DNA from: an uncultured Chryseobacterium sp.
GTDB taxonomy: Bacteria; Bacteroidota; Bacteroidia; Flavobacteriales_F; PHOS-HE28
Length of the DNA: 64,000 nucleotides
Reading direction: 5' to 3'
Assembly (NCBI GenBank): GCA_964649165.1
Contig: CAZYPC010000003.1
Coordinates: 11,430 to 75,429, forward strand
Shown here piece by piece: positions 19,233 to 34,556 of this stretch (within the stretch, counting starts at the first letter, position 1; each line of letters starts with the position of its first letter). Both the position numbers and the translations under genes were made by a program. Below the pieces are notes generated by a model, which ran no database searches, was not told the DNA's origin, and saw only the letters and a list, made by a program, of their open reading frames with translations.

Positions 19233-19284
19233 CGGTCAGGTTTCGGGGCGGCGAAGCTCCTACTTTCGTCGGCCTACCCGTCAC

Positions 19285-20595
19285 ATGTCCGTCACCTTCG
19301 AGAATTCCCTCGCCTTCGCCCAGCGTATGGACCAGCAGGATCCGCTGCGCGACCTCCGCAACGAGTTCTTGTTCCCGCAACACAACGGTACCCCCGTCAT
19401 CTATTTCACGGGCAACTCGCTCGGCCTTCAACCGAAGGGCGCCGCCGCCGCGTTGAAGCAGGAGCTGGACGATTGGGCCACCTTCGGGGTGGAAGGGCAC
19501 TTCCAGGCGAAGAATCCCTGGTATCCCTATCACGAGTTCTTCAGCGAGAGCCTGGCGCGCATCGTGGGTGCGAAGCCGACGGAAGTGGTCGCCATGAACG
19601 GGCTGACGACGAACCTTCACCTGCTTATGGTGTCGTTCTATCGGCCCAGCGGGAAGCGAACGAAGATCCTTTGTGAGGAACGACCGTTCCCGAGCGACAC
19701 GTATGCCTTCAAGTCACAAGCCGAATTCCATGGGCTCGACGCGAACAGCACGGTGATCGGCATGAAGCCGCGCGCCGGTGAGCATACGTTGCGCACCGAG
19801 GACATCGTGAAGCGCATCGAAGAACTCGGCGATGAACTCGCGCTCGTCTGCTTCGGTGGCGTGAACTTCCTGACCGGTCAGGCCTTTGATATGAGATCCA
19901 TCACCGAGGCCGGACAGCGGGTCGGTGCTGTGGTCGGCTTCGATCTCGCGCATGCTGCTGGCAACCTCAAGCTCGCGATGCACGATTGGAGCGTGGACTT
20001 CGCCTGTTGGTGCAGCTACAAGTACCTCAACAGCGGACCGGGAAGCATCGCGGGCGCGTTCGTTCACGAAAGACATCACCGCGAGAAGCTTCCGCGCTTC
20101 GCGGGCTGGTGGGGCCACGACAAGAACGAGCGCTTCCTGATGGAACCCGAGTTCAAACCGATGGCGAGCGCCGAAGCGTGGCAGTTGAGCAATGCCCCGG
20201 TCTTCAGCATGGCCGTGCATCGGGCGTCGCTCGACCTGTTCGACCGCGCAGGTATGGATGCGCTCCGCGCGAAGAGCGAACAGCTCACCGGTTTCCTGAA
20301 ACTGGTGCTGAATGAGATCTCGGTGGAGCACGCGAACCTCTTCGAGATCATCACGCCGAACGACCCTGCGGAACGCGGTTGCCAACTGAGCCTGCTTGTG
20401 CGCGAGAACGGAAGGGCACTCTTCGATGCGCTCACCAAGAACGGCGTGGTCGTCGACTGGCGCGAACCGAATGTCATCCGGATGGCGCCGGTGCCACTGT
20501 ACAACAGTTTTGAGGATGTGTTCCGTTGCGGTGAAGTGTTGAACAACGCATTGCGCGCTAACGCCTTCGCCGACGCTTCGGCGAGCAAAGCATGA
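19285..20595 (+). CDS. kynU: kynureninase
   Basis: Internal ATG (MSVTFENSLAFAQRMDQQDPL...) of ORF 19216..20595. Class-V aminotransferase fold with the conserved kynureninase N-terminal region. ATGA overlap with the downstream KMO gene. Confidence 0.85.
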   Translation: MSVTFENSLAFAQRMDQQDPLRDLRNEFLFPQHNGTPVIYFTGNSLGLQPKGAAAALKQELDDWATFGVEGHFQAKNPWYPYHEFFSESLARIVGAKPTEVVAMNGLTTNLHLLMVSFYRPSGKRTKILCEERPFPSDTYAFKSQAEFHGLDANSTVIGMKPRAGEHTLRTEDIVKRIEELGDELALVCFGGVNFLTGQAFDMRSITEAGQRVGAVVGFDLAHAAGNLKLAMHDWSVDFACWCSYKYLNSGPGSIAGAFVHERHHREKLPRFAGWWGHDKNERFLMEPEFKPMASAEAWQLSNAPVFSMAVHRASLDLFDRAGMDALRAKSEQLTGFLKLVLNEISVEHANLFEIITPNDPAERGCQLSLLVRENGRALFDALTKNGVVVDWREPNVIRMAPVPLYNSFEDVFRCGEVLNNALRANAFADASASKA

Positions 20596-21938
20596 GTAAC
20601 ATCACGATCGTCGGCGGTGGACTTGTGGGGAGCCTGCTCGCTGTCTTCCTCGCGAAACGCGGCCACAAGGTGAATGTGTTCGAGCGCCGCGGCGATCCAC
20701 GCAAGACGGATGTGTACGCGGGGCGCAGCATCAACCTCGTCGTTTCGCACCGCGGCTGGACGGCCTTGCGTGCGGCCGGTGTGGAGGATGCCGTGAAGGC
20801 GATCACCGTGCCCGTGTACGCGCGCATGATGCACGACCGCGATGGCAAGCTCAATCGTGTGCCGTACAGCATCGATAACCGCGCGATCTATTCGGTTTCA
20901 CGCGGCGAACTGAACCGTCGATTGCTCACGGAGGCGGAGAAGCTGCCGAACGTGAAGCTGTTCTTCGACCATAGATGTTTGGATGTCGATCTCGCGAACG
21001 CGGAATGTGTCTTCGAGAACGGCGGTGCGCGCGTGACCCGGAAGGCGGACGTTGTCTTCGGCAGCGATGGAGCATTCAGCGCCGTGCGCCAGAAGATGAT
21101 GCAAGGGCGCTTCACGTACAGCCAGGAGTACATCGAGCACGACTACAAGGAGGTGGCCTTCCCTGCGAACGCGGACGGTACGCCCAAGATGGACCCGCAG
21201 TGCCTGCACATCTGGCCGCGCCGCTACTACATGATGATGGGCCTGGCCAACCAGGACGGTGGCTTCACCGGTACGCTCTTCATGCCGAACACGCACACGG
21301 AGAACGCCCCGGGCTTCGATGTCGTGAAGACCGAGGAACAAGTGACGAAGTTCTTCGCTGACCATTTCGCGGATGCGATGCCCATCGTGCCTGACCTGGT
21401 GCAGCAATACCTGCGCAACCCTCAGAGCTCGCTTGTGATCATCCGCTGCAATCCGTGGCAGGTGAATGGCAAGGTGGCGCTGATCGGTGATGCGGCCCAC
21501 GCGATCGTTCCCTTCTACGGCGAGGGCATGAACGCGGGCTACGAGGATTGCAAGGTGCTGAACGACCTGCTGAACGAACACGGCGACGACAACTGGTCCA
21601 AGGTGCTCCCGCGCTACGCCGCCAAACGCAAGCCGAACGGGGACGCCATCGCCGACCTGTCACTCCGCAACTTCATCGAGATGCGCGACCTGGTGGCCGA
21701 TCCGAAGTTCCTGCTGCGCAAGAAGATCGAAGGCCACCTGCAAGCGAAGCACCCGGACCAATGGCTGCCGCTCTACAGCCAGGTGAAGTTCAGCGACATC
21801 GAGTACAAGGACGCGTGGAAGGAGGGGCTGCGGCACGACCGGATCATGGAGGAGGTGCTGGCGATGCCGGGGATCGAGGAGAAGTGGGGGAGTGAAGAGG
21901 TGGAGAAGAAGGCGCTGCAATTGATGCGGGCAACCTAG
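20592..21938 (+). CDS. kmo: kynurenine 3-monooxygenase (FAD-dependent)
   Basis: N-terminal FAD-binding IVGGGLVGSLLAVFLAKRG. About 450 aa. Translationally coupled to kynU. Confidence 0.8.
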   Translation: MSNITIVGGGLVGSLLAVFLAKRGHKVNVFERRGDPRKTDVYAGRSINLVVSHRGWTALRAAGVEDAVKAITVPVYARMMHDRDGKLNRVPYSIDNRAIYSVSRGELNRRLLTEAEKLPNVKLFFDHRCLDVDLANAECVFENGGARVTRKADVVFGSDGAFSAVRQKMMQGRFTYSQEYIEHDYKEVAFPANADGTPKMDPQCLHIWPRRYYMMMGLANQDGGFTGTLFMPNTHTENAPGFDVVKTEEQVTKFFADHFADAMPIVPDLVQQYLRNPQSSLVIIRCNPWQVNGKVALIGDAAHAIVPFYGEGMNAGYEDCKVLNDLLNEHGDDNWSKVLPRYAAKRKPNGDAIADLSLRNFIEMRDLVADPKFLLRKKIEGHLQAKHPDQWLPLYSQVKFSDIEYKDAWKEGLRHDRIMEEVLAMPGIEEKWGSEEVEKKALQLMRAT

Positions 21939-22477: not shown

Positions 22478-22605
22478 ACCTCTGAGCCCTGGCAGGTGGA
22501 TCTGACTCATCCCTTGATGGATCTTGGCGACCGGCTGTCGAAGCCATTCAGAATGACGACATCAGACGCGTGCGCGCCGCTATCTTTGGACAACCAACGC
22601 GCCCC

Positions 22606-22842
22606 ATGTCCGAGACCGAACTGAAGAAGCGCCTCATCGGCCGCATACAGCGTTCGCGGAACAGCGCCTTGTTGCGCGAGGCCTACCGCTTGATGGGAAC
22701 GGATGCTGCCGACCTTGAGCCGTACAAGCTGAGCAAGGAGCAGAAGGCGTCCATCGCGAAGGGTAAAAGGGACATCAAGGAGAGTCGCACGCTTTCCGCA
22801 GCGAAGGCGAACAAGGCCATTGATGAGTGGCTCGGCAAGTAG
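22606..22842 (+). CDS. putative type II antitoxin (addiction-module component)
   Basis: About 78 aa charged helical protein (internal ATG MSETELKK of ORF 22570..22842). 16-nt overlap with the downstream RelE/ParE-like gene. Confidence 0.5.
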   Translation: MSETELKKRLIGRIQRSRNSALLREAYRLMGTDAADLEPYKLSKEQKASIAKGKRDIKESRTLSAAKANKAIDEWLGK

Positions 22843-23120
22843 TCTGGTCGTTGAACGCGCAGAGGGAGAAGGTCGCCATTCTGCACTACTGGGTGGAATG
22901 CAACGGTTCCACGGCCTACAGCGCCAAACTTGATGAGATGTTCAGGTCCGCTTTGAGCCGCGTAGCCCAGCATCCAAAGCTCGGTCGGTCGACGAGTGAT
23001 CCTGACGTCCGGATGAAAGTCGTCGGCGAGTTCGAGATCTTCTATTCGCTCACGCAGGACACTGTACATGTGTTGTCGGTCTGGCGCGGCACAAGGGATC
23101 CTGTGGGCAGACCCTATTGA
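22827..23120 (+). CDS. type II toxin, RelE/ParE family
   Basis: 97 aa. ILHYWVE...VHVLSVWRGTRDP motifs characteristic of the ParE/RelE fold. Confidence 0.6.
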   Translation: MARQVVWSLNAQREKVAILHYWVECNGSTAYSAKLDEMFRSALSRVAQHPKLGRSTSDPDVRMKVVGEFEIFYSLTQDTVHVLSVWRGTRDPVGRPY

Positions 23121-23135
23121 CGCCACCCTGCGCGC

Positions 23136-23951
23136 ATGCCCTACCTCGCCCGCTTCAGCCTGAACGCTCCGCGCAGCCATCCGTTCCCGTTCGATATCCC
23201 TTCAGTGCGCTTCGCCAAGGACATCGGCCTCGGTGCGCCGGTGACCTGCTTCGTCGGAGACAACGGCACGGGCAAGTCCACCTTGTTGGAGGTGTTGGCC
23301 TACCGGCTCCAGCTTCCGCGCATGGATGGCTCCGGCTACGGTGGGCGAGGGTTCGCAGCGGCCCGCAAACTCTTGCCTTTCCTGACGGTGGAATTCGCCT
23401 TGCATCGTACCACGGGCTTTTTCTTCCGGGCGGAGGATTTCGGTGACCTGCTGAACAGTGTGGACCGGCAGGACCAACGGCTGCATGCTCAGCTGGAGGA
23501 GTTGCATGGCGATGTACCGGACCACATCATCGCGGCGATGAAGGACAGCTCGAACCACCAGTTGCATCGGGTGCGCAGGAACTATGGCCAGGAACTGCAG
23601 GGATTCTCCCACGGCGAGGCCTACCTGCACATCTTGCAGCAACAGGTCCGTGGGCCAGGGATCTACCTGCTGGATGAACCCGAAGCTGCTCTTTCACCGG
23701 CGCGGCAACTCGCCCTGCTCCATTTCATGCAGGAACATTTGAAGGAGCACCGGTCCCAGTTCATCATCGCTACCCATGCGCCCATCATCATGGCCTTCCC
23801 GAAAGCGCTGTTGTACGAGATCGCCCCGGATGGCATGGAACTGAAACGATTGGAGGAATTAGAGAACTACACGTTCACCAAAGCGTTCCTTGCTGACCCA
23901 GGACGGTTCCTGGCCGCGCTGGACAACCGGGATGCGCGGTCTTTCGGATGA
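23136..23951 (+). CDS. stand-alone ABC/SMC-type (AAA_21-like) ATPase
   Basis: Walker A GDNGTGKST. Q-loop/signature region. Walker B LLDEPEAALS. H-loop ATHAP. No transmembrane or partner domain. 271 aa. Confidence 0.6.
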   Translation: MPYLARFSLNAPRSHPFPFDIPSVRFAKDIGLGAPVTCFVGDNGTGKSTLLEVLAYRLQLPRMDGSGYGGRGFAAARKLLPFLTVEFALHRTTGFFFRAEDFGDLLNSVDRQDQRLHAQLEELHGDVPDHIIAAMKDSSNHQLHRVRRNYGQELQGFSHGEAYLHILQQQVRGPGIYLLDEPEAALSPARQLALLHFMQEHLKEHRSQFIIATHAPIIMAFPKALLYEIAPDGMELKRLEELENYTFTKAFLADPGRFLAALDNRDARSFG

Positions 23952-24015
23952 GCCGCATGTCGCTGTCAGCCCAAGTGGGGACCATAAATGAGAGGCGGCC
24001 GACTTCCTTTGGGCC

Positions 24016-24543
24016 GTGGACACCGCCGCGACGTTCAGAGCGCTGTACGATGCGCACGCCCGCATGGTCTACAACCTCTGCCTGAACCATCTGCGCAACG
24101 CGGATGAAGCGGCCGAAGCCACACAGGATGTCTTCGTGAAGGTCCACGAAAAGCTGTCGGGTTTCAAGGGCGATGCGACCCTGCGCACCTGGATCTACAG
24201 GATCACGATCAATACGTGTCTGGACCGGTTGAAGGCGCGCAAGCGGAAGAAACGCGCGTTGTTCGGCTGGTTGAGCCTTTCGGATGAACATGTCGAACGC
24301 GCCGCATCCGCCGTGTTCGATCACCCTGGCGTTGCCGCTGAGGATCGAGAGGCCCTCGAACGCTTGTTCGTGATGGTCGATGACCTGCCCGGACAGCAGC
24401 GGACCGCCTTGCTGCTGAAGACCTCCGAGGACCTGTCGATGGTCGCCATCGCCGAGGTGATGGGTATTTCATCGAAGGCGGTGGAATCGCTTTTGTCCCG
24501 CGCCCGTGCCAACCTGCGTCAACGCCTGCCCAACGAAGGATGA
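24016..24543 (+). CDS. RNA polymerase sigma-70 factor, ECF subfamily
   Basis: Region 2 (VKVHEKLSGFKG...WIYRITIN) and region 4 (LPGQQRTALLLKTSEDLSMVAIAEVMGIS) motifs. 175 aa. Confidence 0.85.
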   Translation: MDTAATFRALYDAHARMVYNLCLNHLRNADEAAEATQDVFVKVHEKLSGFKGDATLRTWIYRITINTCLDRLKARKRKKRALFGWLSLSDEHVERAASAVFDHPGVAAEDREALERLFVMVDDLPGQQRTALLLKTSEDLSMVAIAEVMGISSKAVESLLSRARANLRQRLPNEG

Positions 24544-24574
24544 ACACGTATCTGTCGTCAAACACCGCAAGAAC

Positions 24575-24847
24575 ATGGACACGAACGCCCCGGAAGACCT
24601 GCTGAAGCGCGTAGCGCGCGTCGATCCGCCACCGTTCCTGTTCACGCGCATAGAAGCCCGCCTGGCGAGCGGGGCATTGATGCGGGTGCCGCGCGCTCGA
24701 CTGGTCGCCGTGGCTTGTGGGCTGGCACTGCTGCTGCTGGCGAACGTGAGCGTGATCATGCGGGCGTCACGCGCTGCGGCCGGCCCATCTTTGTGCGACG
24801 TGGCCGAAGGAATGGGCATGAACGTGACCAACCAGCTCTACCAATGA
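24575..24847 (+). CDS. putative anti-sigma factor (single-pass membrane protein)
   Basis: Immediately downstream of the ECF sigma gene. About 90 aa with one TM helix LVAVACGLALLLLANVSVIM. Internal ATG of ORF 24506..24847. Confidence 0.45.
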   Translation: MDTNAPEDLLKRVARVDPPPFLFTRIEARLASGALMRVPRARLVAVACGLALLLLANVSVIMRASRAAAGPSLCDVAEGMGMNVTNQLYQ

Positions 24848-25296
24848 CGCGCACCCGCTTGTTGTCCATCGCGGTGGTGGCGCTGGTAGTGCTCAACCTG
24901 ACCACGCTCGGTGTGCTCTTCTTCCGAAGGCCGCCGCACCCGCACGGGCGGCATGAGGGACCGAGGGCGATCATCATCGAACGGCTGCAACTGGATGCGG
25001 ACCAGGTGAAGGTCTATGAGGGCTTGATCCGGGACCACCGTGGCAAGATCGAAGAGCTCGACCGGCACATGCTGGAGTTGCGCGGGCGCCTCTACGATGC
25101 TGAGTATCCCTTGTCCGCGGACTCGATCATCTCCCTCATCGGCGAAACGCAGAGCACGATCGAGCGTACGCACACCGACCACTTCGCGCGCATCCGTGCG
25201 ATCTGCCGGCCCGATCAGTTGCCGTTGTTCGACAGTATGACCAAAGATCTCGCCGGTTTCTTCCGGAACGGCCCACCACCGCTGAAAGAGCCGTAA
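24844..25296 (+). CDS. membrane-anchored periplasmic sensor-like protein (CnrX / Spy-CpxP-like, His-rich)
   Basis: ATGA overlap with the anti-sigma gene. N-terminal TM anchor followed by HPHGRHEGP and a helical LxxQ-containing domain (LQLDADQ, ICRPDQ). Third member of a sigma / anti-sigma / sensor trio. Confidence 0.4.
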   Translation: MTRTRLLSIAVVALVVLNLTTLGVLFFRRPPHPHGRHEGPRAIIIERLQLDADQVKVYEGLIRDHRGKIEELDRHMLELRGRLYDAEYPLSADSIISLIGETQSTIERTHTDHFARIRAICRPDQLPLFDSMTKDLAGFFRNGPPPLKEP

Positions 25297-25973
25297 TGAA
25301 GGCGCTGCTGACGATCGTGTTGGGCGCCGCCCTGAGCATTCCCGATACCCGCGCGCAACGCATCGCGTTCACCCCGGTGGTACGCGATGTTCCGCTTGTG
25401 CTGGACAAGCCGTTCGTGCTCGGTGATCAAGGGCCGGTCACCATCACGCAGTTCAAGTTCTATGTCGGTCAATTCACGTTCTACCGCGCAGGGAAGCCGC
25501 TCGTGTATGACCACAGCTACTATCTCATCGACGCCGCGGATACCACGACCTTCGATGTGGGGACGGTCTTTCGGCCAACTCCCATCGACTCGGTTTCCTT
25601 CCTGCTTGGTGTGGACAGCCTCACCAACGTGAGCGGCGTCTTCGGCGGTGACCTCGATCCGATCAAGGGCATGTACTGGACATGGAACAGCGGTTACATC
25701 AACCTGAAGCTGGAAGGCACGAGCCCACGTTCACCCTACGCGACGCATGCGTTCGAATTGCATTTGGGCGGCTACCTGCCACCGTTCCCTACGGTGCAGC
25801 GCGTAACCCTTCCATTGCACGGCCTCGGACCTTGGCACTTCGGTGTTGACGTTGTACCGCTTCTCGAGTCCGCTGACGTCAGTACGCGATGCAATGTGAT
25901 GTCCCCGGGAGAACAAGCGCTGCGACTTTCCAAGGCCTCGGTTACGATGTTCAAGAGCGATGCGCTGCGGTAA
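25296..25973 (+). CDS. MbnP-like periplasmic (copper-binding-type) protein, WxW motif
   Basis: Signal peptide MKALLTIVLGAALSIPDTRAQ. YWTWNSGY (WxW) motif. Predicted beta-rich. About 225 aa. Overlaps the downstream di-haem peroxidase gene by 14 nt. Confidence 0.5.
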   Translation: MKALLTIVLGAALSIPDTRAQRIAFTPVVRDVPLVLDKPFVLGDQGPVTITQFKFYVGQFTFYRAGKPLVYDHSYYLIDAADTTTFDVGTVFRPTPIDSVSFLLGVDSLTNVSGVFGGDLDPIKGMYWTWNSGYINLKLEGTSPRSPYATHAFELHLGGYLPPFPTVQRVTLPLHGLGPWHFGVDVVPLLESADVSTRCNVMSPGEQALRLSKASVTMFKSDALR

Positions 25974-26988
25974 ATGGTTGGTGATCCCGTTGACAGGCGT
26001 GCTGTGCGCCTTGATGGCCGCTGGAACCATGCCGGCACATCCGGTACAACTCGGGGTGCCGAAAGGTTGGCCCCCGATGAGCTACGATCTTTCTCGGAAC
26101 CCGTTGACGCAGGAGGGCATCGCGCTCGGCCGGAAGCTCTTCCATGATCCCCTTCTTTCGCTCGACAGCAGTACTTCCTGCTCGAGTTGTCATCTCTCCT
26201 ACACGGCCTTCAGCCACACGGACCACCAGCTGAGCCACGGCATCCACGACAGCATCGGCACGCGCAACGCGCCCGCCCTGATGAACCTGGCGTGGAGCAA
26301 GACCTTCATGTGGGACGGCGCGGTGAACCACCTGGATATGCAGCCCCTCGCGCCGATCAACCATTCCGGGGAGATGGGTGAGAGCACGCAGCATGTCGTG
26401 TTCAAACTGGAGAACAGCCGCACCTATCGTCGTCTTTTCGCGGAGGCGTTCGGTGACTCCATGATCCTGAGCGACCGCATGTTGAAAGCGCTCGCGCAGT
26501 TCCAGCTTTCGCTCGTGTCCGCAGGTTCCCGCTATGACCGGATGAAGGCCGGCGTCGAGCTTTTCACCGAACAAGAGCGGAACGGCTACCTGTTGTTCCA
26601 GGCGCATTGTAACACCTGCCACAAGGAGCCGCTCTTCACCACCGGCGAGTTCGCCAACAACGGCCTGCCCCCGGACAGTCTGCTGCGGGATGGCGGGCGC
26701 ATCCGCATCACGCACGACCCCGAGGATTCGCTGAAATTCAAGATCCCCACGTTGCGCAACGTCGAGTATTCGTTCCCCTACATGCACGACGGGCGGTTCA
26801 AACGGTTGCGCCAGGTGATCGACCACTACGCGAGCGGGATCATGACCTCCGGATCATCGGCCCCCCAGTTGAAGAAGCCGATCATGCTGACACCGGAGGA
26901 ACGCACGGACCTCGTGGCCTTCCTCCTCACCCTGAGCGACCGGGAGTTCGTGATGGACCCGGACCATGCGGCGCCCAGGAACTACTGA
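25960..26988 (+). CDS. di-haem cytochrome c peroxidase family protein (MauG/MbnH-like)
   Basis: Two CxxCH haem motifs (CSSCH, CNTCH). Signal peptide. 342 aa, with the overall CCP/MauG length and spacing. Confidence 0.8.
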   Translation: MRCGKWLVIPLTGVLCALMAAGTMPAHPVQLGVPKGWPPMSYDLSRNPLTQEGIALGRKLFHDPLLSLDSSTSCSSCHLSYTAFSHTDHQLSHGIHDSIGTRNAPALMNLAWSKTFMWDGAVNHLDMQPLAPINHSGEMGESTQHVVFKLENSRTYRRLFAEAFGDSMILSDRMLKALAQFQLSLVSAGSRYDRMKAGVELFTEQERNGYLLFQAHCNTCHKEPLFTTGEFANNGLPPDSLLRDGGRIRITHDPEDSLKFKIPTLRNVEYSFPYMHDGRFKRLRQVIDHYASGIMTSGSSAPQLKKPIMLTPEERTDLVAFLLTLSDREFVMDPDHAAPRNY

Positions 26989-27036
26989 GCGAAGGATGCG
27001 TGCGCGGACGTCGTCCAACGGTCACACCCCACCGAG

Positions 27037-28857
27037 ATGAAGTCCACCACCGCACTCGCCTGTCTTCTCCTGGCGTCCGGAACAAGGGCCCAGCTGGGCC
27101 CGAACATCACGCAATGGCTCGTGAACACGACGGGCACGACGGGTCGCCACTACGTATCCGGCAACAGCACACCGATCAATGACGCGGTGCAGGTGAACGT
27201 GCAGAACGTGAAGTACAGCGCGAGCCAGGTGTACGTGACCTGCACGGGCATCCCGTCGTATGTCACCGGCCCTTTCCTGGACGGGAATCCTTCGTCGGCA
27301 ACGAACCAGAACGCGATCTTCCGGTTGCCGCGCATCCCTGTACAGAACACCGGAACGCCCACCAATACCACGGGTGGCAACATCGGCATCTTCATCAATG
27401 GCGTCGCGTTCTTCGACTACCGCGACGGTGTTTCCTGGAGGAACGCCACGCAGCAATTGTGCGGAGGTCCGATCCAACCGATGTGCACGGGTGATGGTGT
27501 CTGGAACCGCGACGCCGTGCCTGCGGAGCGTGCGGGCTTCGATTGCTCGAAGGGCCACCCGGCCATGGGCAACTACCATCATCATCAGAACCCGAGCGCC
27601 TTCAACCTGGACATCAATGTGATCTCCACGGTATGCAACCTGTACGCGGCGGATGGTCTCTATGCCATCGACAGCACGCGACATTCCCCGTTGCTGGGAT
27701 TCGCGTATGATGGGTTCCCGGTGTATGGCGCTTACGGCTACGCGAATGCGGATGGCACCGGGGGTCTCAAGCGCATCCGCTCGAGCTACCAGGTCCGGAA
27801 CATCACAGTGCGCACGCACTACGCGAACGGCACGGATGTCACCGATGGCCCTGCCGTGAACACGACCTATCCGCTCGGTTACTTCCGCGAGGACTATGAG
27901 TACATCGCGCATGCGGAACCGTACTATCTGGATGCGCACAACGGCCGTTCCTGCGTAACCCCCGAATATCCCGGCGGCACGTACGCCTACTTCTGTTCCG
28001 TGGACGCGAACTGGAATTCAGCTTACCCGTACATCGTGGGGCCGACGTTCTACGGCGTGGTGACGGGAGCGAAGGTGGCCTCCATCGCTGAGACGGTCAC
28101 CACGTACAGTTGGGTGAAGCTGGCGGCACGCGTCTACCTGCAGGGACCATATGATAGCGGTTCCGGTCTGATGAACGATGGGCTGCGCGCTGCTTCATTG
28201 CTTCCGACCACACAGCCGTACACCGCCTTGGGATACAGCTTTACGGGGACAACGGTGACCAATGGGACAGTGGCTCCGGGAGTCTTCACCACGACCACGG
28301 GGAACAACGCCATCGTCGATCATGTGATCGTTGAATTGCGCAACGCCGTCACACCTTCCACCGTGCTCGCGAGTTGCCCCGCCCTGCTGCAGCGCGATGG
28401 TGATGTGGTGGCGCTCGATGGCCGATCCACACTTGTCATCGCCATCGCACCGGGCACCTACCACGTGGCCCTGCGTCATCGCAACCATCTCGGTGTGATG
28501 ACGGGCACCGCGGTCGCGCTGGGCAACAACTCCACCACGGTGGATCTCACGTCCACCGGAACAACGTTGTACGGTAGCAATGCCACAGCGACGGTAGGTG
28601 CAACGCGTTTGTTGTGGTCAGGTGATGTCAGCTACAACAAGACGCTCGCCTACACCGGCAGCGGGAACGATCGCGATCCCATCCTCGTGACAGTGGGCAG
28701 CACCACGCCGAACAACACGGTTGCGGCTTACAGCTCATCCGACGTCGACCTCGATGGTTCGGTCAAATACACCGGCAGCAACAACGACCGGGACCGTATC
28801 CTGGTGAATGTCGGCAGCACGACACCCAACAGCATCCAGAACGAACAACTCCCCTGA
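27037..28857 (+). CDS. secreted YHYH-domain (His-rich) protein with C-terminal dockerin-like repeats
   Basis: Signal peptide. GNYHHHQNPSAF, DSTRHSPLLGFAYDGFPVYGAYGY and YAYFC motifs. C-terminal repeated DxDxDG/NNDRD calcium-binding-like repeats. About 70 % identical to the next gene across the core. Confidence 0.6.
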   Translation: MKSTTALACLLLASGTRAQLGPNITQWLVNTTGTTGRHYVSGNSTPINDAVQVNVQNVKYSASQVYVTCTGIPSYVTGPFLDGNPSSATNQNAIFRLPRIPVQNTGTPTNTTGGNIGIFINGVAFFDYRDGVSWRNATQQLCGGPIQPMCTGDGVWNRDAVPAERAGFDCSKGHPAMGNYHHHQNPSAFNLDINVISTVCNLYAADGLYAIDSTRHSPLLGFAYDGFPVYGAYGYANADGTGGLKRIRSSYQVRNITVRTHYANGTDVTDGPAVNTTYPLGYFREDYEYIAHAEPYYLDAHNGRSCVTPEYPGGTYAYFCSVDANWNSAYPYIVGPTFYGVVTGAKVASIAETVTTYSWVKLAARVYLQGPYDSGSGLMNDGLRAASLLPTTQPYTALGYSFTGTTVTNGTVAPGVFTTTTGNNAIVDHVIVELRNAVTPSTVLASCPALLQRDGDVVALDGRSTLVIAIAPGTYHVALRHRNHLGVMTGTAVALGNNSTTVDLTSTGTTLYGSNATATVGATRLLWSGDVSYNKTLAYTGSGNDRDPILVTVGSTTPNNTVAAYSSSDVDLDGSVKYTGSNNDRDRILVNVGSTTPNSIQNEQLP

Positions 28858-28880
28858 CGCACCTTCGCGCCCCAACGATC

Positions 28881-30257
28881 ATGAACAGAATATTCCCGCT
28901 CATTATGGCCCTGGCTATGTCCGCCTTCGCCTCCGCACAGACCGATCCGGTGATCATTGATTGGTTGTTCAACACAACGGGCATCACCGGCTCGCACTAT
29001 GTGTCCGGTAACTCGACGCCGATCCAGGATGCGGCGCAGGCGAACGTGCAGCAAGTGCAGTATTCGGACGACTGGTCTTACGTACACACGCAGGGCATTC
29101 CCGCATACATCACCGGACCGTTCCTGGACGGCAACCCGAACCAGGCGGGCGGGCAGAACGCCATCTTCAGGATCCCGCGTACGCCACAGCCCAACCAAGG
29201 CACCTTGGATGTGACCACTGGCGGTGATATCGGTGTGTTCATCAACGGGGTCGCGCTGTTCGATTTCCGCGATGGCTGCGGCTGGAACCCCAACACCAAC
29301 GCGCTTTGCGGAGGTCCCGGCAATCCGCCCTGTCCTGGTCCGCCCGGCCAACTGCAGGATTGGAACCGCGATGCGATCGTGGCCGAACGGGCAGGTTTCG
29401 ATTGTGCCAAAGGGCACCCGCAACAACAAGGGACTTACCACCACCATCAGAACCCCAGCGCGTTCAACCTCGACCTCACGGTGCTCTCCAACGTCTGCGA
29501 CCTCTACCTCGCCGATGGTCTTTATGCCATCGACAGCACGGAGCATTCACCGCTGCTGGGCTTCGCGTTCGATGGCTATCCGATCTATGGAGCATACGGC
29601 TATGCGAACGTGGACGGCACAGGCGGCATCACGCGCATCCGGTCGGGCTATCAGTGGCGGAACATCACCACGCGCACTACGCATGCCGATGGTACCGATG
29701 TGAGCGATGGCCCTGCTGTGAACGAGACCTACCCGATCGGCTATTTCCGCGAGGACTATGAATTCCTGACCCATCCGGAGCCTTTCTACCTGGACGAACA
29801 CAACGGTCGCTTCTGTGTGACGCCGGAGTTTCCCTCCGGCACGTACGCCTACTTCTGCACGGTCGACGCCGCTTGGAACTCGGTCTATCCCTATGTCGTT
29901 GGCCCAACCTTCTACGGTGTGAAGACGGCGACCCTGGTAACGACCATCACGGAGGCTGTGACCACCTACGATCCCTTGACCGCGGCTGTGGCTTCCATCG
30001 CGCCGGAAGATGACCGTGTGACCGTGTTCCCCAACCCCGGTGGCGATCTGATCGCGGTGCAGGTGCATGGCATCGTTCGCGAGAACCTGCCCATCGCACT
30101 TTACGACATGAGCGGCAAGCTCGTGCGTTCGGAGGTGATCAAGCAGGGAAGTACGATCTGGTACCTGGACACCCGCACCCTGTACGATGGCTTGTACAAC
30201 GTGCGCATCGGACAGGGCCGTGGGGCCATCTGCACCCAGGTGCAGGTGGTCCATTGA
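28881..30257 (+). CDS. secreted YHYH-domain (His-rich) protein with T9SS C-terminal sorting domain
   Basis: Paralog of 27037..28857 (GTYHHHQNPSAF etc.). C-terminal VFPNPGGDL...LYDMSGKLV...GLYNVRIGQ... CTD. Confidence 0.65.
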   Translation: MNRIFPLIMALAMSAFASAQTDPVIIDWLFNTTGITGSHYVSGNSTPIQDAAQANVQQVQYSDDWSYVHTQGIPAYITGPFLDGNPNQAGGQNAIFRIPRTPQPNQGTLDVTTGGDIGVFINGVALFDFRDGCGWNPNTNALCGGPGNPPCPGPPGQLQDWNRDAIVAERAGFDCAKGHPQQQGTYHHHQNPSAFNLDLTVLSNVCDLYLADGLYAIDSTEHSPLLGFAFDGYPIYGAYGYANVDGTGGITRIRSGYQWRNITTRTTHADGTDVSDGPAVNETYPIGYFREDYEFLTHPEPFYLDEHNGRFCVTPEFPSGTYAYFCTVDAAWNSVYPYVVGPTFYGVKTATLVTTITEAVTTYDPLTAAVASIAPEDDRVTVFPNPGGDLIAVQVHGIVRENLPIALYDMSGKLVRSEVIKQGSTIWYLDTRTLYDGLYNVRIGQGRGAICTQVQVVH

Positions 30258-30334: not shown

Positions 30335-31174
30335 ATGAAGCGCTTGGTCCTGATCGGTTGTTTGTTCGTGCCCGTGTTGCTCTCAGCGCAGGGGTTGATG
30401 GAACGCAAGCACCCGGACATTTTCCCGCTCGATGGCAAGATGAAGCGCAGCGGCTTCTTCATTGCGCCGGGCGTGACATGGGCGCTTGCACCGTTCAAGG
30501 ACCGGGAGGAACACGATGAATTCGGTTCGGATACGATGGTCGATGCGGTGTATCACGGCATTGGCAAGCTCGGGCTGTATCTCGAAGCGGGCTGGTTCAT
30601 CTCCACGCGCGATCCAGTGATCATCGACTATTGGGACTTCGGGCTGGCGTACAAACAATTGAAAGGGCGGGAAGAGTCGGAGGGCTCGTTCGCACGGGGT
30701 GATAGCATTGGCCAGTGGTTCAGTGAGGGGGACTTCAACGATCAGCATCTCACCCTTGCGATCAACGCGAACAAACTGTTCTGCGTGCGCGACTATCGGT
30801 TCTTCCAGTTCAGCCTGGGGGCCAACGTGGACTGGCGCTTCGGAGAGGGCCGTGACTTCGAGGGCTTCTTCGTGCCCGACTCACAGGACTTTCCGCCGGA
30901 GTTCATCGGCCAGGCGCACGCCAAACTCGGCTTCGGCTTCAAGCTCACGCAGCAGTTGATGATCATTCCCGCGATCGAGACACCTTTCTTCAGCGTAATG
31001 CCGGAGGATCAGGGTTTCGGACGCCTTCAGTGGTTCAACACCACGTACCGCCCGCTCATCTTCAGTGTCCGTTTCCTCTTCCTCCGCTATCCCAACGGAT
31101 GGGCATGCCCTCCGGTGAAGAACAACGAGTTCGAACGGCACAAGGTGGTGAACCCGGAGTACAAGCGGAGGTAG
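30335..31174 (+). CDS. hypothetical exported / outer-membrane-like protein
   Basis: Internal ATG with signal peptide MKRLVLIGCLFVPVLLSAQG. Alternating aromatic / beta-strand-like pattern. C-terminal F-rich end. Confidence 0.45.
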   Translation: MKRLVLIGCLFVPVLLSAQGLMERKHPDIFPLDGKMKRSGFFIAPGVTWALAPFKDREEHDEFGSDTMVDAVYHGIGKLGLYLEAGWFISTRDPVIIDYWDFGLAYKQLKGREESEGSFARGDSIGQWFSEGDFNDQHLTLAINANKLFCVRDYRFFQFSLGANVDWRFGEGRDFEGFFVPDSQDFPPEFIGQAHAKLGFGFKLTQQLMIIPAIETPFFSVMPEDQGFGRLQWFNTTYRPLIFSVRFLFLRYPNGWACPPVKNNEFERHKVVNPEYKRR

Positions 31175-31178
31175 TGCG

Positions 31179-34100
31179 TCAACGTGGCGTGTGCGCCTGA
31201 ACGGTCTTCGTATCGGTCGGTCCCAGGACCAGTATCGGCCCGCTGTTGTTCAATACCAGGAGGCATTCGCCTCGACCGGCGATCGCGATGGGAAGCACGT
31301 GACGCGTATCGTATGGAATGGAGATGCCGCTTGCCCGACCCTCGACCGGAGTCAGCCCTCCCTTGCCGTCGCCGCGCAATAAGAGACCCATGCTCGCGTC
31401 GTACCGCGGGGTCTCAGCCTCGGCGCCGTAGTGGTTGCCGGCCACCAACAGATCCATCCGGCCATCCTTGTCGGCATCCAGCATCCGGAGAGATCGCGCA
31501 GCGGAGACCTGCGCGGCCATCGGCAACGGCCTTGCCTCGAAATGCCCGTTGACGTTGATGAACAGCGCACTCGCGAAGCTGGTCGCCTTCAACCGCAGAG
31601 CGTCATTGAGCGCCGCGCCATAGATGTTCTCCAAGGTGGCATCGGCGAATGCCTTGTAGGTAGGGAACCGGCCTTGGATGAACGGCATCTGTCGGCTTGA
31701 ACACTCGCGACCGCGCACCGGCAATTCACACTGGTCACCCGTTTTCGCGAGCACGATGTCGTTGGTGCCGCTGTGGTCCAGATCCCCCATATAGACCTGG
31801 AGCGGCTTGTCGTTGGACGGATGGAACTTGTTGTTCAGGCCGATGTTGCCTGCCGCCAGGTCAAGATCGCCGTCGCCATCGATGTCACCGACGGTCATTC
31901 CCTGCCACCAGCCGGTCAGCGACGTGTCGAGCACACTGGAGGAGATGTCCTTGAATGCACTGCCCGTGTTCTTGAGCACACGTATGGGCATCCATTCGCC
32001 GCATAGCAGGAGTTCCGCACGCTTGTCGTTGTCGATGTCCGAGAACAGCGCTTGCGTGATGAGTCCTGGTCGTGGAAGTGAGGTCAGCCATGTGGATGAA
32101 ACGTCCTTGAAGGTGCCGTGGTCGTTCAACAGCACCTGACTTGCCGGCGGGGAAGGCCAGGCCCCGGGAACGTTCCGGCCTCCGACGAAGAGATCGGGAT
32201 CACCGTCGCCATCGATGTCATCGGAGGCGATGGCCGATGCGCTCACCCGGAGGTCCGGCAGGGCCTGTTCGGCGTAGTCGAACGCACCGTGGCCATCGTT
32301 GGTGAACATCCGGGCCCGGTACCGCTCATCCCCCGGAGGGAATTCCGTGCTACCAGCGGCCAGGTACAGGTCCGCGTCATGGTCGCCATCCGCGTCGAAG
32401 AAAAGCGCGCCGTTGAACTCGGAGGTTCGGAAGACGTTCCACGGTTGCGCGGGTGCCGGAGCGAATTGTCCGGTGCTTTTCTGGAGGAGCAACAGGCATG
32501 GACTTCCGGCCGAAGCCGTCAGGAAAAGGTCGTCGAGACCATCACCGTTCACGTCGGCTACCGCAGCCGCAGGGCCGTGCATGCTCTGGCGGTGGGGCAG
32601 AAGGGACTCCGCCTTGAACTCATCGTAGGCGTTCTCATGATGACCGAAGCGCAATCCCAAATCACCGGCGATCTCCCTGAAAAGTGGTCGAGTGCGCGTT
32701 GTGCGCGGTCGTTCCCGCAACGATGAACGATCGACGGTGAGCCGTTCGTTCCGTTCCGGACCGATCAGCACTGTCTGCCGGCCATCAGGCCAATCGATCA
32801 CCACGGAATCGATGTGGTCATCGGGAACGCCGAAATGCAACACCGGTTCCACGCTGCCCTGGTACCCGCGCGCGGGGAACAGGGCACACACCTGGCGGCC
32901 GCTGGCCGAATGGAGTTCGGCTGACGCGCCAGTGGCGAACGGGTTTTTCGCCTCGCCTTTCAAGACCAGTTGCAGATAACCCGCGCCCGTGTTCTCGCGC
33001 GTGAGATTGCGCACCACCGTCGCCGGGGAGTTCACATTGACCGTCACCAGGTCCAGGTCCCCGTCCAGGTCAAGATCCGCGTACGTGCCCCCGTTGCTCA
33101 AGGTCTTCTGGTGATAGCCCCATTCGTCCATCGCCTTGGTGAACGTGAGATCATGCGCGTTGCGGAAGACCATCTTCTCCGGAACGTGCGTGGGCGCGAG
33201 GTCCAGGAGCGGTTCGAAAGCCACCTGCTTGCTGGAAGCACCGGTGAATTTGCGCACTTGGTCCCTGAAATCGTTGTTGCCCACATCCCGTGCGATGCCA
33301 TTGGTGACGAACAGGTCCTTCCACCCATCGTTGTCCAGGTCGACGAACAAAGGGGCCCAGCTCCAGTCGGTGCGGTCCACTCCGGCCATCTGCGCCACCT
33401 CGCTCCAGGTGCCATCACCGTTGTTGCGCTGGAGCGTGTTGATCATGTACTGGTAGTGCATTCCACGGTCCACCATCGCGTCGAACTGCCCCGGTGCCAT
33501 GCTCGCCATGTTCTCCTTGTTCAGCTTGTGGTCGCCGGGGGTCATGTCCAATACGCACAGGTCCGGATCGCCATCGTTGTCGTAGTCCGCGCGATCGATG
33601 CCCATGCTGAAGTAGGACGTGTGCTTCAGCGCCTGCCGGGAGATGTCGGTGAAGTGAGGGATGGCACCGGGTCCGCGTGTGCCGTCGTTCACCATCATGA
33701 GGTCGGGCGTGTAGAAATCGTTCGTCACATAGATGTCCAACAGACCATCCGCGTTCAGATCGCCCAGTGCGGCACCAAGGCCATAGTGGTGGCTCGCCAA
33801 CCCGGCTTCCAACGTCCCATCGACAAAGTGGCCACTGCCGTCATTCAGGTACAATTTGTTCGACGTGCCCGGGTCGTAAGGGGGCTTGGGGCCTGCGAGC
33901 TCCTTCCCGAGGGGGAGGAAGTCGGATCGGTGTGAAGCGATGAAGCAGTCGAGGTCGCTGTCTCGGTCCACATCGGCGAAGTAGGCCATCGTGTTGTGCC
34001 CTTCGTCCGCCAGACCGGCAGTGGCCGCATCTTCCTTGAACCGGCCTTCGCCGAGGTTGATGAACAACTTGTTGCGGCGGGTCGCCGCCGCCCACCCAGC

Positions 34101-34556
34101 GGGGCCGGATGCGCAGACATAGATGTCCAGGCGACCGTCCGCGTTCACGTCCGCCATGCTCACCCCCGTTGCCCAGATGGCGTCGATGTTGAACCCGGCA
34201 TCCTCAGATATGTCCTTGAACCTCATCCCGCCGAGATTCTTGTACAGGGCGCCTCCACTCCGGTAGCTCGCGAAGGCGAGGTCCGCCAGGCCGTCCCCAT
34301 CAATGTCACCGGCCGCGACGCCACCACCGTTGTACATGTAGAGGTAGCGGAAGTAATTGGCCTCGTTGTCCTCGATGATGGTGTTGCTGAAGGTTATTCC
34401 CGTGCTGTCTGGGCCTAGAACTTCCAGGCGGGTGCCGGACTTCGGAGCAACTGAAGTGTCTTGCCTGGGTGCTGGCCGCTCGCACGCGGCAATGAGGAGC
34501 GCGACGATGAAGCATGCGCTACAACCGTTCACAAAGGACCTCCGGGCTCCGTTCAT
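31179..34556 (-). CDS. CRTAC1-family lipoprotein with FG-GAP/VCBS repeats and ASPIC/UnbV C-terminal domain
   Basis: Lipobox LIAAC. Multiple DxDGDGxxD FG-GAP calcium-binding repeats. C-terminal UnbV/ASPIC-like region. 1125 aa. Confidence 0.75.
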   Translation of the reverse strand: MNGARRSFVNGCSACFIVALLIAACERPAPRQDTSVAPKSGTRLEVLGPDSTGITFSNTIIEDNEANYFRYLYMYNGGGVAAGDIDGDGLADLAFASYRSGGALYKNLGGMRFKDISEDAGFNIDAIWATGVSMADVNADGRLDIYVCASGPAGWAAATRRNKLFINLGEGRFKEDAATAGLADEGHNTMAYFADVDRDSDLDCFIASHRSDFLPLGKELAGPKPPYDPGTSNKLYLNDGSGHFVDGTLEAGLASHHYGLGAALGDLNADGLLDIYVTNDFYTPDLMMVNDGTRGPGAIPHFTDISRQALKHTSYFSMGIDRADYDNDGDPDLCVLDMTPGDHKLNKENMASMAPGQFDAMVDRGMHYQYMINTLQRNNGDGTWSEVAQMAGVDRTDWSWAPLFVDLDNDGWKDLFVTNGIARDVGNNDFRDQVRKFTGASSKQVAFEPLLDLAPTHVPEKMVFRNAHDLTFTKAMDEWGYHQKTLSNGGTYADLDLDGDLDLVTVNVNSPATVVRNLTRENTGAGYLQLVLKGEAKNPFATGASAELHSASGRQVCALFPARGYQGSVEPVLHFGVPDDHIDSVVIDWPDGRQTVLIGPERNERLTVDRSSLRERPRTTRTRPLFREIAGDLGLRFGHHENAYDEFKAESLLPHRQSMHGPAAAVADVNGDGLDDLFLTASAGSPCLLLLQKSTGQFAPAPAQPWNVFRTSEFNGALFFDADGDHDADLYLAAGSTEFPPGDERYRARMFTNDGHGAFDYAEQALPDLRVSASAIASDDIDGDGDPDLFVGGRNVPGAWPSPPASQVLLNDHGTFKDVSSTWLTSLPRPGLITQALFSDIDNDKRAELLLCGEWMPIRVLKNTGSAFKDISSSVLDTSLTGWWQGMTVGDIDGDGDLDLAAGNIGLNNKFHPSNDKPLQVYMGDLDHSGTNDIVLAKTGDQCELPVRGRECSSRQMPFIQGRFPTYKAFADATLENIYGAALNDALRLKATSFASALFINVNGHFEARPLPMAAQVSAARSLRMLDADKDGRMDLLVAGNHYGAEAETPRYDASMGLLLRGDGKGGLTPVEGRASGISIPYDTRHVLPIAIAGRGECLLVLNNSGPILVLGPTDTKTVQAHTPR

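Follow-up and report, generated by a model that had tools for sequence, protein, structure and literature searches.

A conserved operon linking an MbnP/MbnH-type pair and a sigma factor trio to secreted YHYH proteins in Bacteroidota-type genomes

A seven-gene operon, found in hundreds of Bacteroidota-type genomes, joins an ECF sigma factor, a candidate anti-sigma factor and a candidate sensor to an MbnP-like protein (a predicted copper-binding protein), its MauG/MbnH-type di-haem enzyme and secreted proteins, probably enzymes, of an uncharacterised and apparently new fold. No description of this combination was found in the literature accessible to us. The operon was examined in a window of 64,000 nucleotides from an uncultured Chryseobacterium sp. 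(contig CAZYPC010000003.1, positions 11,430 to 75,429; coordinates below are those of the window). A preliminary description, made from the sequence alone, had proposed a metal-responsive module here, and what it observed is borne out in all but a few details. Its interpretation is only partly supported: the module is real and recurrent, but a copper role is inferred rather than shown, since neither a copper response nor copper binding was examined.

Composition of the operon

All seven genes lie on the + strand and are tightly packed, with a 4-nt ATGA overlap, a 1-nt TAATG overlap and a 14-nt overlap at successive junctions. The first (24016-24543) encodes an ECF-type sigma-70 factor of 175 aa (Sigma70_r2, 57.9 bits; Sigma70_r4_2, 46.7 bits; TIGR02937, 94 bits). 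A conserved TTCCTTTGG element (24004-24012, + strand), of unknown role, lies 3 nt before its GTG start and is present at the same place in six of the related loci (L006, L011, L012, L013, L016 and L038); it may be part of a promoter or start signal, although it was not tested further and no shared ECF-type promoter motif could be found. The second gene (24575-24847, in an ORF that opens at 24506) encodes a 90-aa single-pass membrane protein that matches no family. Its position between the sigma and the sensor is conserved, the same gene call appears on L001, and an N-terminal V-x-PPFL-x-TRI motif is conserved in 26 orthologs, but its assignment as a candidate anti-sigma factor rests on position and size only.

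The third gene (24844-25296) encodes a 150-aa, N-terminally membrane-anchored periplasmic protein of the LTXXQ/Metal_resist type (PF13801, 31.5 bits against a cut-off of 29.2), relatives of which are named ‘Spy/CpxP family’ or ‘periplasmic heavy metal sensor’, making it a candidate sensor. The His-rich HPHGRHEGP stretch emphasised in the preliminary description is present but is not conserved in orthologs. Instead, L48..Q (an LxxxQ motif), His65, Phe114, Cys121 and Gln125 are invariant, and His113 is about 90% conserved. The proposed organisation like CnrH/CnrY/CnrX holds for architecture only: the sigma is no closer to CnrH than to SigW, SigH or RpoE, and the sensor profile hits an LTXXQ/Spy-like chain rather than CnrX.

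The fourth gene (25296-25973) encodes an MbnP-like periplasmic protein of 225 aa with a signal peptide and the WxW sequence YWTWNSGY. A score below threshold against MbnP models had been named in advance as grounds for rejecting this assignment; the Pfam score is far above it (PF20243, 120.9 bits), whereas the NCBIfam equivalog model TIGR04052 matches only the core, residues 97-158, at 26.5 bits against a cut-off of 140. M126, W128, W130 and H156 are invariant in 27 diverse orthologs, and these are the predicted residues of a kynurenine-type copper site, the site in MbnP being formed by His, Met and Kyn174 within WxW (PMC11951088). The fifth gene (25960-26988) encodes a 342-aa MauG/MbnH-type di-haem enzyme with CSSCH at residue 74 and CNTCH at residue 217. 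It scores 169.5 bits against PF03150 (CCP_MauG) and 201 bits against TIGR04039, below the cut-off of 363, and its best solved relative is MbnH (6E1C, E 6e-39). Tyr290 is at least 95% conserved and is the last aligned residue of the MauG matches, which end at chain position 294, the position of the Tyr294 haem ligand of MauG. The MbnP/MbnH assignment therefore holds at family level but not at the equivalog thresholds.

The last two genes encode YHYH proteins (PF14240, 182 and 180 bits), both with signal peptides, that are 66% identical over 373 aa, against about 70% in the preliminary description. The motifs YHHHQNPSAF, HSPLLGFA and YAYFC are present. YHYH1 (27037-28857, 606 aa) has an unclassified 250-aa C-terminal region with two copies of a repeat of roughly 25 aa. 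This region was initially read as dockerin-like Ca-binding repeats, but it matches no Pfam or NCBIfam family, even at E ≤ 10, and this reading is not supported. The YHYH1 paralog is present only in the nearest relatives, such as L008. YHYH2 (28881-30257, 458 aa) is T9SS cargo, having a type A C-terminal sorting domain (PF18962, 32.4 bits; TIGR04183, 29.6 bits) that YHYH1 lacks; its listed orthologs, 62-88% identical, all carry both domains. The idea that the two paralogs are demonstrably routed to different surface locations is not supported.

Conservation of the linkage

Loss of the gene order in related genomes had likewise been set out beforehand as a result that would count against the module, but the order is strongly conserved. 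In 80 species-representative genomes, MbnH follows MbnP in 69/72, YHYH follows in 50/64 and the regulatory trio precedes, with the sigma orthologs directly upstream of MbnP, in 36/67. These include Flavobacteriales, Chitinophagales, Saprospiraceae, Ignavibacteria and Kapaibacterium, and conservation across genomes whose MbnP proteins are only 34-65% identical excludes chance. The linkage is also reciprocal. All five YHYH orthologs looked up have sigma, anti-sigma, sensor, MbnP and MbnH upstream, and three of four distant sensor homologs sit next to MbnP and/or YHYH. A divergent YHYH clade, 33-35% identical, occupies the same slot after MbnH in L022, L050 and L062. A TonB-dependent transporter is absent from the operon, as the preliminary description had observed, and from 78 of 80 related loci. 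The accessory genes in the cargo position are T9SS multicopper oxidases and sulfatases; the former, which are bona fide copper enzymes, follow or replace YHYH in 6-7 loci and in L089.

His160, His168, His170, His203 and Asp212 are invariant in 66 diverse YHYH domains, and in the YHYH2 model (pLDDT 93.3) His160 lies on one strand and His168 and His170 on the next.

Possible functions

The gene content, the motifs, the conserved linkage, the T9SS signal and the lack of any structural relative are established by this analysis, whereas every biochemical step, the identity of the metal and the direction of regulation are inferred. In the reading that is preferred, though only tentatively, a sensor-controlled periplasmic MbnP/MbnH copper pair serves T9SS-exported metalloenzymes. 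The sigma factor would be held at the membrane by the 90-aa protein and freed, to transcribe the operon, by a periplasmic signal detected by the LTXXQ/Metal_resist protein. This signal is most likely a thiophilic metal such as copper, bound through His65, His113 and Cys121. The MbnH-like enzyme would oxidise a Trp of the M-x-W-x-W motif of the MbnP-like protein to kynurenine, as is established for MbnP/MbnH of Methylosinus, completing a copper site with Met126 and His156. Copper-loaded MbnP would then serve T9SS cargo that folds in the periplasm before export, this being the YHYH proteins here and multicopper oxidases or sulfatase-family enzymes in the same slot in other genomes. In this view the YHYH domain, with its four-His plus one-Asp cluster, is a metalloenzyme of a fold not yet solved that works on the cell surface or outside the cell, and its recurrent fusions to sulfatase and arylsulfotransferase domains suggest that it acts on sulfated or phenolic extracellular polymers. 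The copper element rests on family knowledge of MbnP and on the multicopper oxidases that share the slot; there are no expression, metal-binding or modification data for any member, and sulfatases are not copper enzymes. The unmet NCBIfam equivalog cut-offs for MbnP and MbnH, the lack of a shared ECF-type promoter motif, the absence of the TonB-dependent transporters through which MbnPH-type genes are linked to copper uptake elsewhere, and L093, with YHYH but no MbnPH beside the trio, also count against this reading.

Sensors of the CnrX type switch on resistance to metal excess, which fits defence better than supply. An alternative, less likely than the preferred reading, is that the sensor detects an overload of copper or another soft metal and the sigma factor induces MbnP, matured by MbnH, as a periplasmic copper sink, a cuprous-oxidase-type multicopper oxidase where one is present, and surface-displayed YHYH as an outer copper-binding or copper-detoxifying layer. 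The CnrYXH-like architecture, the Metal_resist domain, the conserved Cys and two His of the sensor and the near absence of an importer (a TonB-dependent transporter in only 2 of 80 loci) are in accord with this, as are the multicopper oxidases and an AhpC/Redoxin gene that appear in the module, as in copper-resistance loci. However, neither sensor nor sigma is specifically related to its Cnr counterpart, half of the modules lack the trio beside them, no efflux pump is linked to the module, and a 62-88% conserved, 350-residue enzyme-like domain with fusions to sulfatases is not what a passive metal sponge looks like.

YHYH domains occur in cyanophage baseplate and structural proteins, giant viruses and eukaryotes that have no MbnPH, so the domain does not generally need MbnPH. 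A published prediction assigns it a zinc site, of a His triad plus Asp, and a phage-tail hydrolase role (PMC7824862). It is possible, although rather doubtful, that YHYH is a zinc-dependent (or other non-copper) extracellular hydrolase or depolymerase, acting on a surface or environmental polymer, that is merely co-regulated with an MbnP/MbnH pair of independent copper function, the operon being a stress- or substrate-induced set of envelope proteins rather than a metal-delivery chain. The match of the model to the cyanophage domains and the fusions of YHYH to sulfatase, arylsulfotransferase, Ig, cadherin-like and SprB domains, typical of surface enzymes, favour this, as does L093, where the trio is followed directly by YHYH with no MbnPH beside it. 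But co-regulation alone does not explain why MbnP-MbnH-YHYH stays contiguous in 50/64 genomes across orders, and also with the divergent YHYH clade, or why a copper enzyme takes the same slot.

MauG-family enzymes mature proteins encoded next to them (PMC11892367; PMC11951088), and the di-haem enzyme could also, or instead, oxidise a Trp or Tyr of YHYH to install a protein-derived cofactor, as MauG does for methylamine dehydrogenase, with MbnP a second substrate or an adaptor. The three genes are tightly linked and YHYH orthologs keep invariant Trp28, Trp135 and Trp161 and many invariant Tyr, but only Trp9 and Trp142 (domain numbering) are near-invariant family-wide. This seems the least likely of the alternatives, since MbnP retains its own WxW, Met and His site, so that the established substrate is present, and YHYH domains function in phages and eukaryotes without any MauG-like partner.

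Relation to known systems

One of the closest known systems is the MbnP/MbnH pair of methanobactin operons and MbnT-linked loci (Methylosinus trichosporium OB3b; PDB 7L6G and 6E1C), where a periplasmic WxW protein is likewise followed by a MauG-like di-haem enzyme with an ECF sigma encoded nearby. In methanotrophs and Bordetella, MbnPH-type genes are linked to copper uptake through TonB-dependent transporters. The present operon has neither such a transporter nor MbnA/B/C genes, its regulator is a small anti-sigma plus an LTXXQ sensor rather than a FecR-type MbnR, and its partners are T9SS-secreted YHYH, multicopper oxidase or sulfatase proteins. Since the proteins fall below the NCBIfam equivalog cut-offs, they form a separate FCB-group subfamily. 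In the MopE/CorA systems of gammaproteobacterial methanotrophs, a MauG-like di-haem peroxidase (MCA2590/CorB) is also encoded beside a kynurenine-containing copper protein, and a protein that ends up on the surface or in the medium is involved (PMC3621798). There, however, the secreted protein is itself the kynurenine copper protein, whereas here the MbnP-like protein has no export signal beyond Sec and YHYH carries the T9SS signal. The folds are unrelated.

The CnrYXH nickel/cobalt sensing system of Cupriavidus metallidurans has the same three small genes, an ECF sigma, a single-pass anti-sigma of roughly 90 aa and an N-terminally anchored periplasmic helical sensor of about 150 aa in the same Pfam family (PF13801). 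Here the sigma comes first, the conserved candidate ligands are His, His and Cys rather than the CnrX set, and the output is not an efflux pump. As with MauG and pre-methylamine dehydrogenase, a di-haem enzyme with a conserved Tyr at the position of the MauG haem ligand is encoded beside the protein it is expected to oxidise, but there is no TTQ-type substrate and similarity to MauG (81 bits) is lower than to MbnH (138 bits). Finally, the YHYH domains of cyanophage baseplate and structural proteins, and of giant viruses, share the domain, the predicted fold (Foldseek E down to 5e-20) and the conserved His and Asp residues. The viral domains are fused to virion components, whereas the Bacteroidota proteins are free-standing T9SS cargo with extra Cys-containing inserts and are genetically tied to MbnPH.

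Content and conservation of the module

The region 24016-30257 holds seven co-oriented ORFs on the + strand, with the ATGA and TAATG junctions and the 14-nt overlap that had been noted in the preliminary description, and the same gene calls appear on independent metagenome contigs that carry identical proteins. Base composition is uniform across the window, so nothing marks the region as foreign. Pfam assigns Sigma70_r2 and r4_2 to gene 1, nothing to the 90-aa gene 2, Metal_resist (PF13801, 31.5 bits, cut-off 29.2) to gene 3, MbnP (PF20243, 120.9 bits) to gene 4, CCP_MauG (PF03150, 169.5 bits) to gene 5 and YHYH (PF14240, 182 and 180 bits) to genes 6 and 7 (YHYH1 and YHYH2), with a T9SS sorting domain on gene 7 only. 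The observation holds apart from two minor details. The C-terminal 253 residues of YHYH1 (28096-28857), described as carrying dockerin-like calcium-binding repeats, match no dockerin, calcium-repeat or other family and no recognised T9SS signal; they contain two copies of a roughly 25-residue repeat (Y-T-G-S-x-N-D-R-D-x-I-L-V-x-V-G-S-T-T-P-N). The His-rich HPHGRHEGP stretch of gene 3 is not conserved in orthologs.

Loss of gene order in related genomes had been put forward in advance as grounds for abandoning the proposal, and the order is instead conserved. A profile of 27 MbnP-like proteins found at least 592 loci in a collection holding one genome per species. The best 80 come from Flavobacteriales, Crocinitomicaceae, Chitinophagales, Saprospiraceae and Lewinellaceae, and from Ignavibacteria and Kapaibacterium. 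All ORFs of these loci were searched with the window's proteins. When only loci with enough flanking DNA are counted, MbnH directly follows MbnP in 69 of 72, a YHYH gene directly follows in 50 of 64 and lies within 10 kb in 54 of 64, and the sigma plus Metal_resist pair directly precedes in 36 of 67. All-against-all clustering of the neighbours shows that these are the only widely conserved partners. In these loci MbnP is only 34-65% identical to the window's protein, so the order is maintained by selection rather than recent common descent.

The linkage is reciprocal. All five YHYH orthologs whose contigs were looked up have sigma, a small protein, a roughly 150-aa protein, MbnP and MbnH upstream. 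Of four distant homologs of the candidate sensor, gene 3 (25-32% identity), one heads a full module (locus L094), one precedes MbnP (L092) and one directly precedes a T9SS YHYH gene with no MbnPH (L093, 5138-7882). The fourth (L095) stands alone in exactly the synteny where L094 has the full module; the two share identical flanks but L095 has only the trio of sigma, anti-sigma and sensor, so the effector cassette is gained or lost as a unit. The system is thus built from a regulatory trio and an effector cassette, which can separate but usually travel together. In L092 (6486-12483), the trio and MbnP are followed by a 321-aa protein with no family in place of MbnH, and then by genes with caspase-like and FGE-sulfatase domains. 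Aerobic formylglycine-generating enzymes are copper-dependent, which may be what links sulfatases to this module. Cultured strains also carry it (loci L053 and L041): in Chryseobacterium formosus CCTCC AB2015118 the MbnH gene reads as two ORFs in the assembly and a second peroxidase-like gene follows YHYH, whilst Parasediminibacterium sp. JCM 36343 has MbnP-MbnH-YHYH without the trio.

A 279-aa signal-peptide protein with no family (30335-31174) lies directly downstream of the operon and was considered and rejected as an eighth member: it is conserved only in the closest clade (related loci L008-L016 and L038) and is unrelated to the gene in that position in another related locus, L088. Beyond it, a 1125-aa FG-GAP/ASPIC-UnbV repeat protein (31179-34556, - strand) converges on the operon. 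Just upstream (22570-23951), a small ORF, a ParE-family toxin gene (22827-23120) and an AAA_21/AbiEii-type ATPase gene (23136-23951) look like a toxin-antitoxin or defence-like islet that is shared with close relatives. A kynureninase-like gene and a kynurenine-3-monooxygenase-like FAD enzyme (19216-21938; free-kynurenine metabolism) lie 2-4 kb upstream of a protein predicted to carry protein-bound kynurenine. A link between the two was considered and set aside; since the synteny is seen only in the nearest relatives, it is probably coincidence.

Regulatory genes and the MbnP/MbnH pair

An ECF sigma, a small single-pass candidate anti-sigma and a membrane-anchored periplasmic PF13801 protein lie as neighbours, which is the arrangement of CnrYXH-type signalling systems, as proposed at the outset. 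Specific kinship is lacking, however. CnrH ranks seventh among the solved ECF sigmas, and the sigma factor is no closer to it than to SigW, SigH or RpoE. The candidate sensor belongs to the Spy/CpxP/ZraP/CnrX (LTXXQ) superfamily, and database sources name its relatives ‘Spy/CpxP family’ or ‘periplasmic heavy metal sensor’, but amongst solved structures its profile retrieves an LTXXQ chain (5IHF, E 0.013) and not CnrX. Its invariant or near-invariant residues are an LxxxQ motif, His65, His113-Phe114, Cys121 and Gln125. ‘CnrYXH-like’ is therefore a statement about architecture and logic, not about membership; metal-dependent release of the sigma factor was not assayed.

A shared ECF-type two-block promoter motif was sought upstream of the sigma genes and upstream of trio-less MbnP genes, and nothing rose above the shuffled controls. 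A scan of the locus for sigma-70 promoters and terminators and an Rfam scan were likewise empty or at background. The element TTCCTTTGG (24004-24012) lies 3 nt before the GTG start of the sigma gene and is conserved at the same place in six related loci with otherwise divergent upstream DNA; it might belong to a Bacteroidota-type promoter element or mark a different start.

A score below threshold for MbnP had been named beforehand as a result that would count against the proposal, but the gene 4 protein scores 120.9 bits against a Pfam cut-off of 27, covering profile positions 5-184 of 189. NCBIfam agrees on family but not at equivalog level: MbnP_like_WxW (TIGR04052) scores 26.5 bits against a cut-off of 140, and only the core, residues 97-158, aligns. 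In MbnP of Methylosinus, copper is held by a His, a Met, solvent and kynurenine 174, the kynurenine being made by MbnH from the first Trp of a conserved WxW motif (PMC11951088). The Bacteroidota proteins keep an invariant G-M-Y-W-x-W-N-S-G-Y core and an invariant His in H-L-G-G-Y, with M126, W128, W130 and H156 invariant in 27 orthologs, and thus retain the residue types needed. Whether these residues correspond in position to the ligands of 7L6G is not settled by the comparison, since sequence searches of solved structures with the protein and with its profile found nothing and so do not reach 7L6G; kynurenine formation and copper binding were not measured. The protein is encoded directly beside an MbnH-type di-haem enzyme, with which its gene overlaps by 14 nt.

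That enzyme has both CxxCH haem-binding motifs, CSSCH at residue 74 and CNTCH at residue 217, and the CCP_MauG domain. The NCBIfam model for the MbnH family, TIGR04039, gives 201 bits against a cut-off of 363, although it is still the best-scoring NCBIfam family, ahead of MauG at 174 bits. The closest solved relative is 6E1C (137.6 bits, E 6e-39), ahead of the best peroxidase (123 bits) and well ahead of MauG (81 bits). The entry 6E1C is MbnH of Methylosinus trichosporium. Tyr290 is conserved in at least 95% of 71 orthologs and is the last aligned residue of the MauG matches, which end opposite chain position 294. Tyr294 of MauG is the axial ligand of the second haem that distinguishes MauG-type enzymes from ordinary peroxidases, which have Met; the residue-level alignment to MauG was not examined, so that the identity of Tyr290 as the equivalent ligand is left undecided. 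The window operon contains no MbnA/B/C biosynthesis genes and no MbnT TonB-dependent transporter, no such family is among the conserved neighbours, and a TonB-dependent transporter is present in 2 of 80 loci.

The YHYH proteins and other genes in the cargo slot

The YHYH proteins are the least understood part of the module and the most conserved. The two paralogs are 66% identical over 373 residues. Orthologs of YHYH2 are 62-88% identical across the same genomes in which MbnP is 35-60% identical, and all 120 listed orthologs carry the T9SS sorting domain, for which YHYH2 itself scores 32.4 (PF18962) and 29.6 bits (TIGR04183), above both cut-offs. No sorting-domain family matches YHYH1. The YHYH family is large, with 2,284 clusters at 50% identity matching at E ≤ 0.001, and occurs in bacteria, diatoms, cyanophage baseplates and giant viruses. 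Across 66 diverse members only His160, His168, His170, His203, Asp212 and a few Gly, Pro and Tyr residues are invariant (add 19 for YHYH2 numbering).

The domain has no solved structure and no fold relative, and is apparently of a new fold. Sequence searches of solved structures with YHYH matched only the T9SS sorting domain. A structure prediction for YHYH2 from 32 close orthologs was poor (pLDDT 44), but a model from the alignment of 66 diverse representatives is confident (pLDDT 93.3, pTM 0.92) and mostly beta. In this model His160 lies on one strand and His168 and His170 on the next, which suits a metal site, though the coordinates were not inspected. Against predicted viral structures, the model matches YHYH domains of cyanophage structural and baseplate proteins and of giant viruses; models of the AlphaFold database were not included in the comparison. 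The only functional statement found in the literature is a prediction that the domain is a zinc-dependent hydrolase on phage tails, with a His triad and an Asp (PMC7824862). A rival explanation, considered unlikely, is accordingly that YHYH is a non-copper hydrolase that is merely co-regulated with MbnPH.

Fusions point to a surface enzyme linked to sulfate-ester chemistry. Sulfatase-YHYH occurs in three unrelated proteins (P0291 and P0311, and one at locus L051, 14562-19484, which has a Cys-type C-S-P-T-R motif and SprB repeats), and arylsulfotransferase-YHYH with a T9SS signal occurs in one (P0285). SprB, Ig, Calx-beta and cadherin-like repeats with T9SS signals are also found fused to the domain.

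The position after MbnH can be occupied by other genes. Orthologous sulfatase genes lie inside or beside the module in 8-9 of 80 loci, the one in locus L091 having a weak T9SS signal. T9SS multicopper oxidases follow or replace YHYH after MbnPH in 6-7 of 80 loci, and also in L089 (8396-10093); further cases are L058 (6115-7917), L036, L057, L069, L074 and L079. In L089 the operon runs trio, MbnP, MbnH, YHYH, multicopper oxidase, AhpC/Redoxin, a cytochrome c/Tll0287-like protein and a cupin. A divergent YHYH clade (33-35% identity, without the Cys-containing inserts) takes the same place in L022, L050 and L062. The constant theme is MbnP/MbnH followed by T9SS-exported enzymes, one class of which certainly needs copper.

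Possible roles and relation to known systems

In the best-supported reading, the trio senses a periplasmic signal, most likely copper or another soft metal given the conserved His, His and Cys, and releases the sigma factor. MbnH would mature MbnP into a kynurenine copper protein, which would provide or buffer copper in the periplasm for T9SS cargo that folds there before export. This reading is held only tentatively. What the analysis demonstrates is only the anatomy of the module and its conservation, whilst each biochemical step is inferred from family knowledge. Several features argue against it: YHYH works in phages and eukaryotes without MbnPH, sulfatases are not copper enzymes, and L093 lacks MbnPH next to YHYH. 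In addition, CnrX-type logic usually controls resistance rather than supply, and a copper-excess defence system is a possible, though more doubtful, alternative. It is also conceivable, but very unlikely, that MbnH acts on YHYH itself. The initial interpretation, a metal-responsive and perhaps copper-handling module, is thus partly supported: the module is real, widespread and coherent, the copper role is plausible but untested, and the CnrYXH and MbnPH labels hold for how it probably works rather than for strict membership.

A more far-reaching possibility is that YHYH is a previously unrecognised, new-fold family of copper-dependent extracellular enzymes, possibly oxidative depolymerases of sulfated or phenolic polymers, and that in the FCB group the kynurenine copper protein MbnP, matured by MbnH, is their dedicated periplasmic metallochaperone and loads them before T9SS export. 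This is thought unlikely, although not excluded by the evidence. It would be the first described metallation pathway for T9SS cargo, and a physiological role for non-methanotroph MbnPH pairs.

MbnP/MbnH pairs are widespread outside methanotrophs and their physiological role there is open. The module gives them a fixed genetic partner and a fixed regulator in a large, ecologically important group of bacteria, and gives the first functional handle on the YHYH domain. If the copper-supply reading is right, it would show how T9SS cargo acquires metal before export, whereas if the defence reading is right, it would be a new kind of copper-resistance system in Bacteroidota. Either way, the hypotheses are open to direct test in the cultured carriers, C. 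formosus and Parasediminibacterium sp. JCM 36343.

Full-text searches on YHYH (PF14240), MbnP and MbnH found no description of this combination, although prior mention is not excluded because the searches did not extend to the primary MbnPH papers with neighbourhood analyses. MbnP/MbnH pairs themselves are known to occur far beyond methanobactin producers, and are usually described next to TonB-dependent transporters, MbnI/MbnR regulators or copper-chaperone genes (PMC3621798; PMC9426467). The module here differs in three respects: in its regulator, a small candidate anti-sigma plus an LTXXQ candidate sensor; in the absence of a transporter; and in having as its fixed partner T9SS cargo of unknown function, the YHYH proteins, which are uncharacterised and apparently of a new fold.
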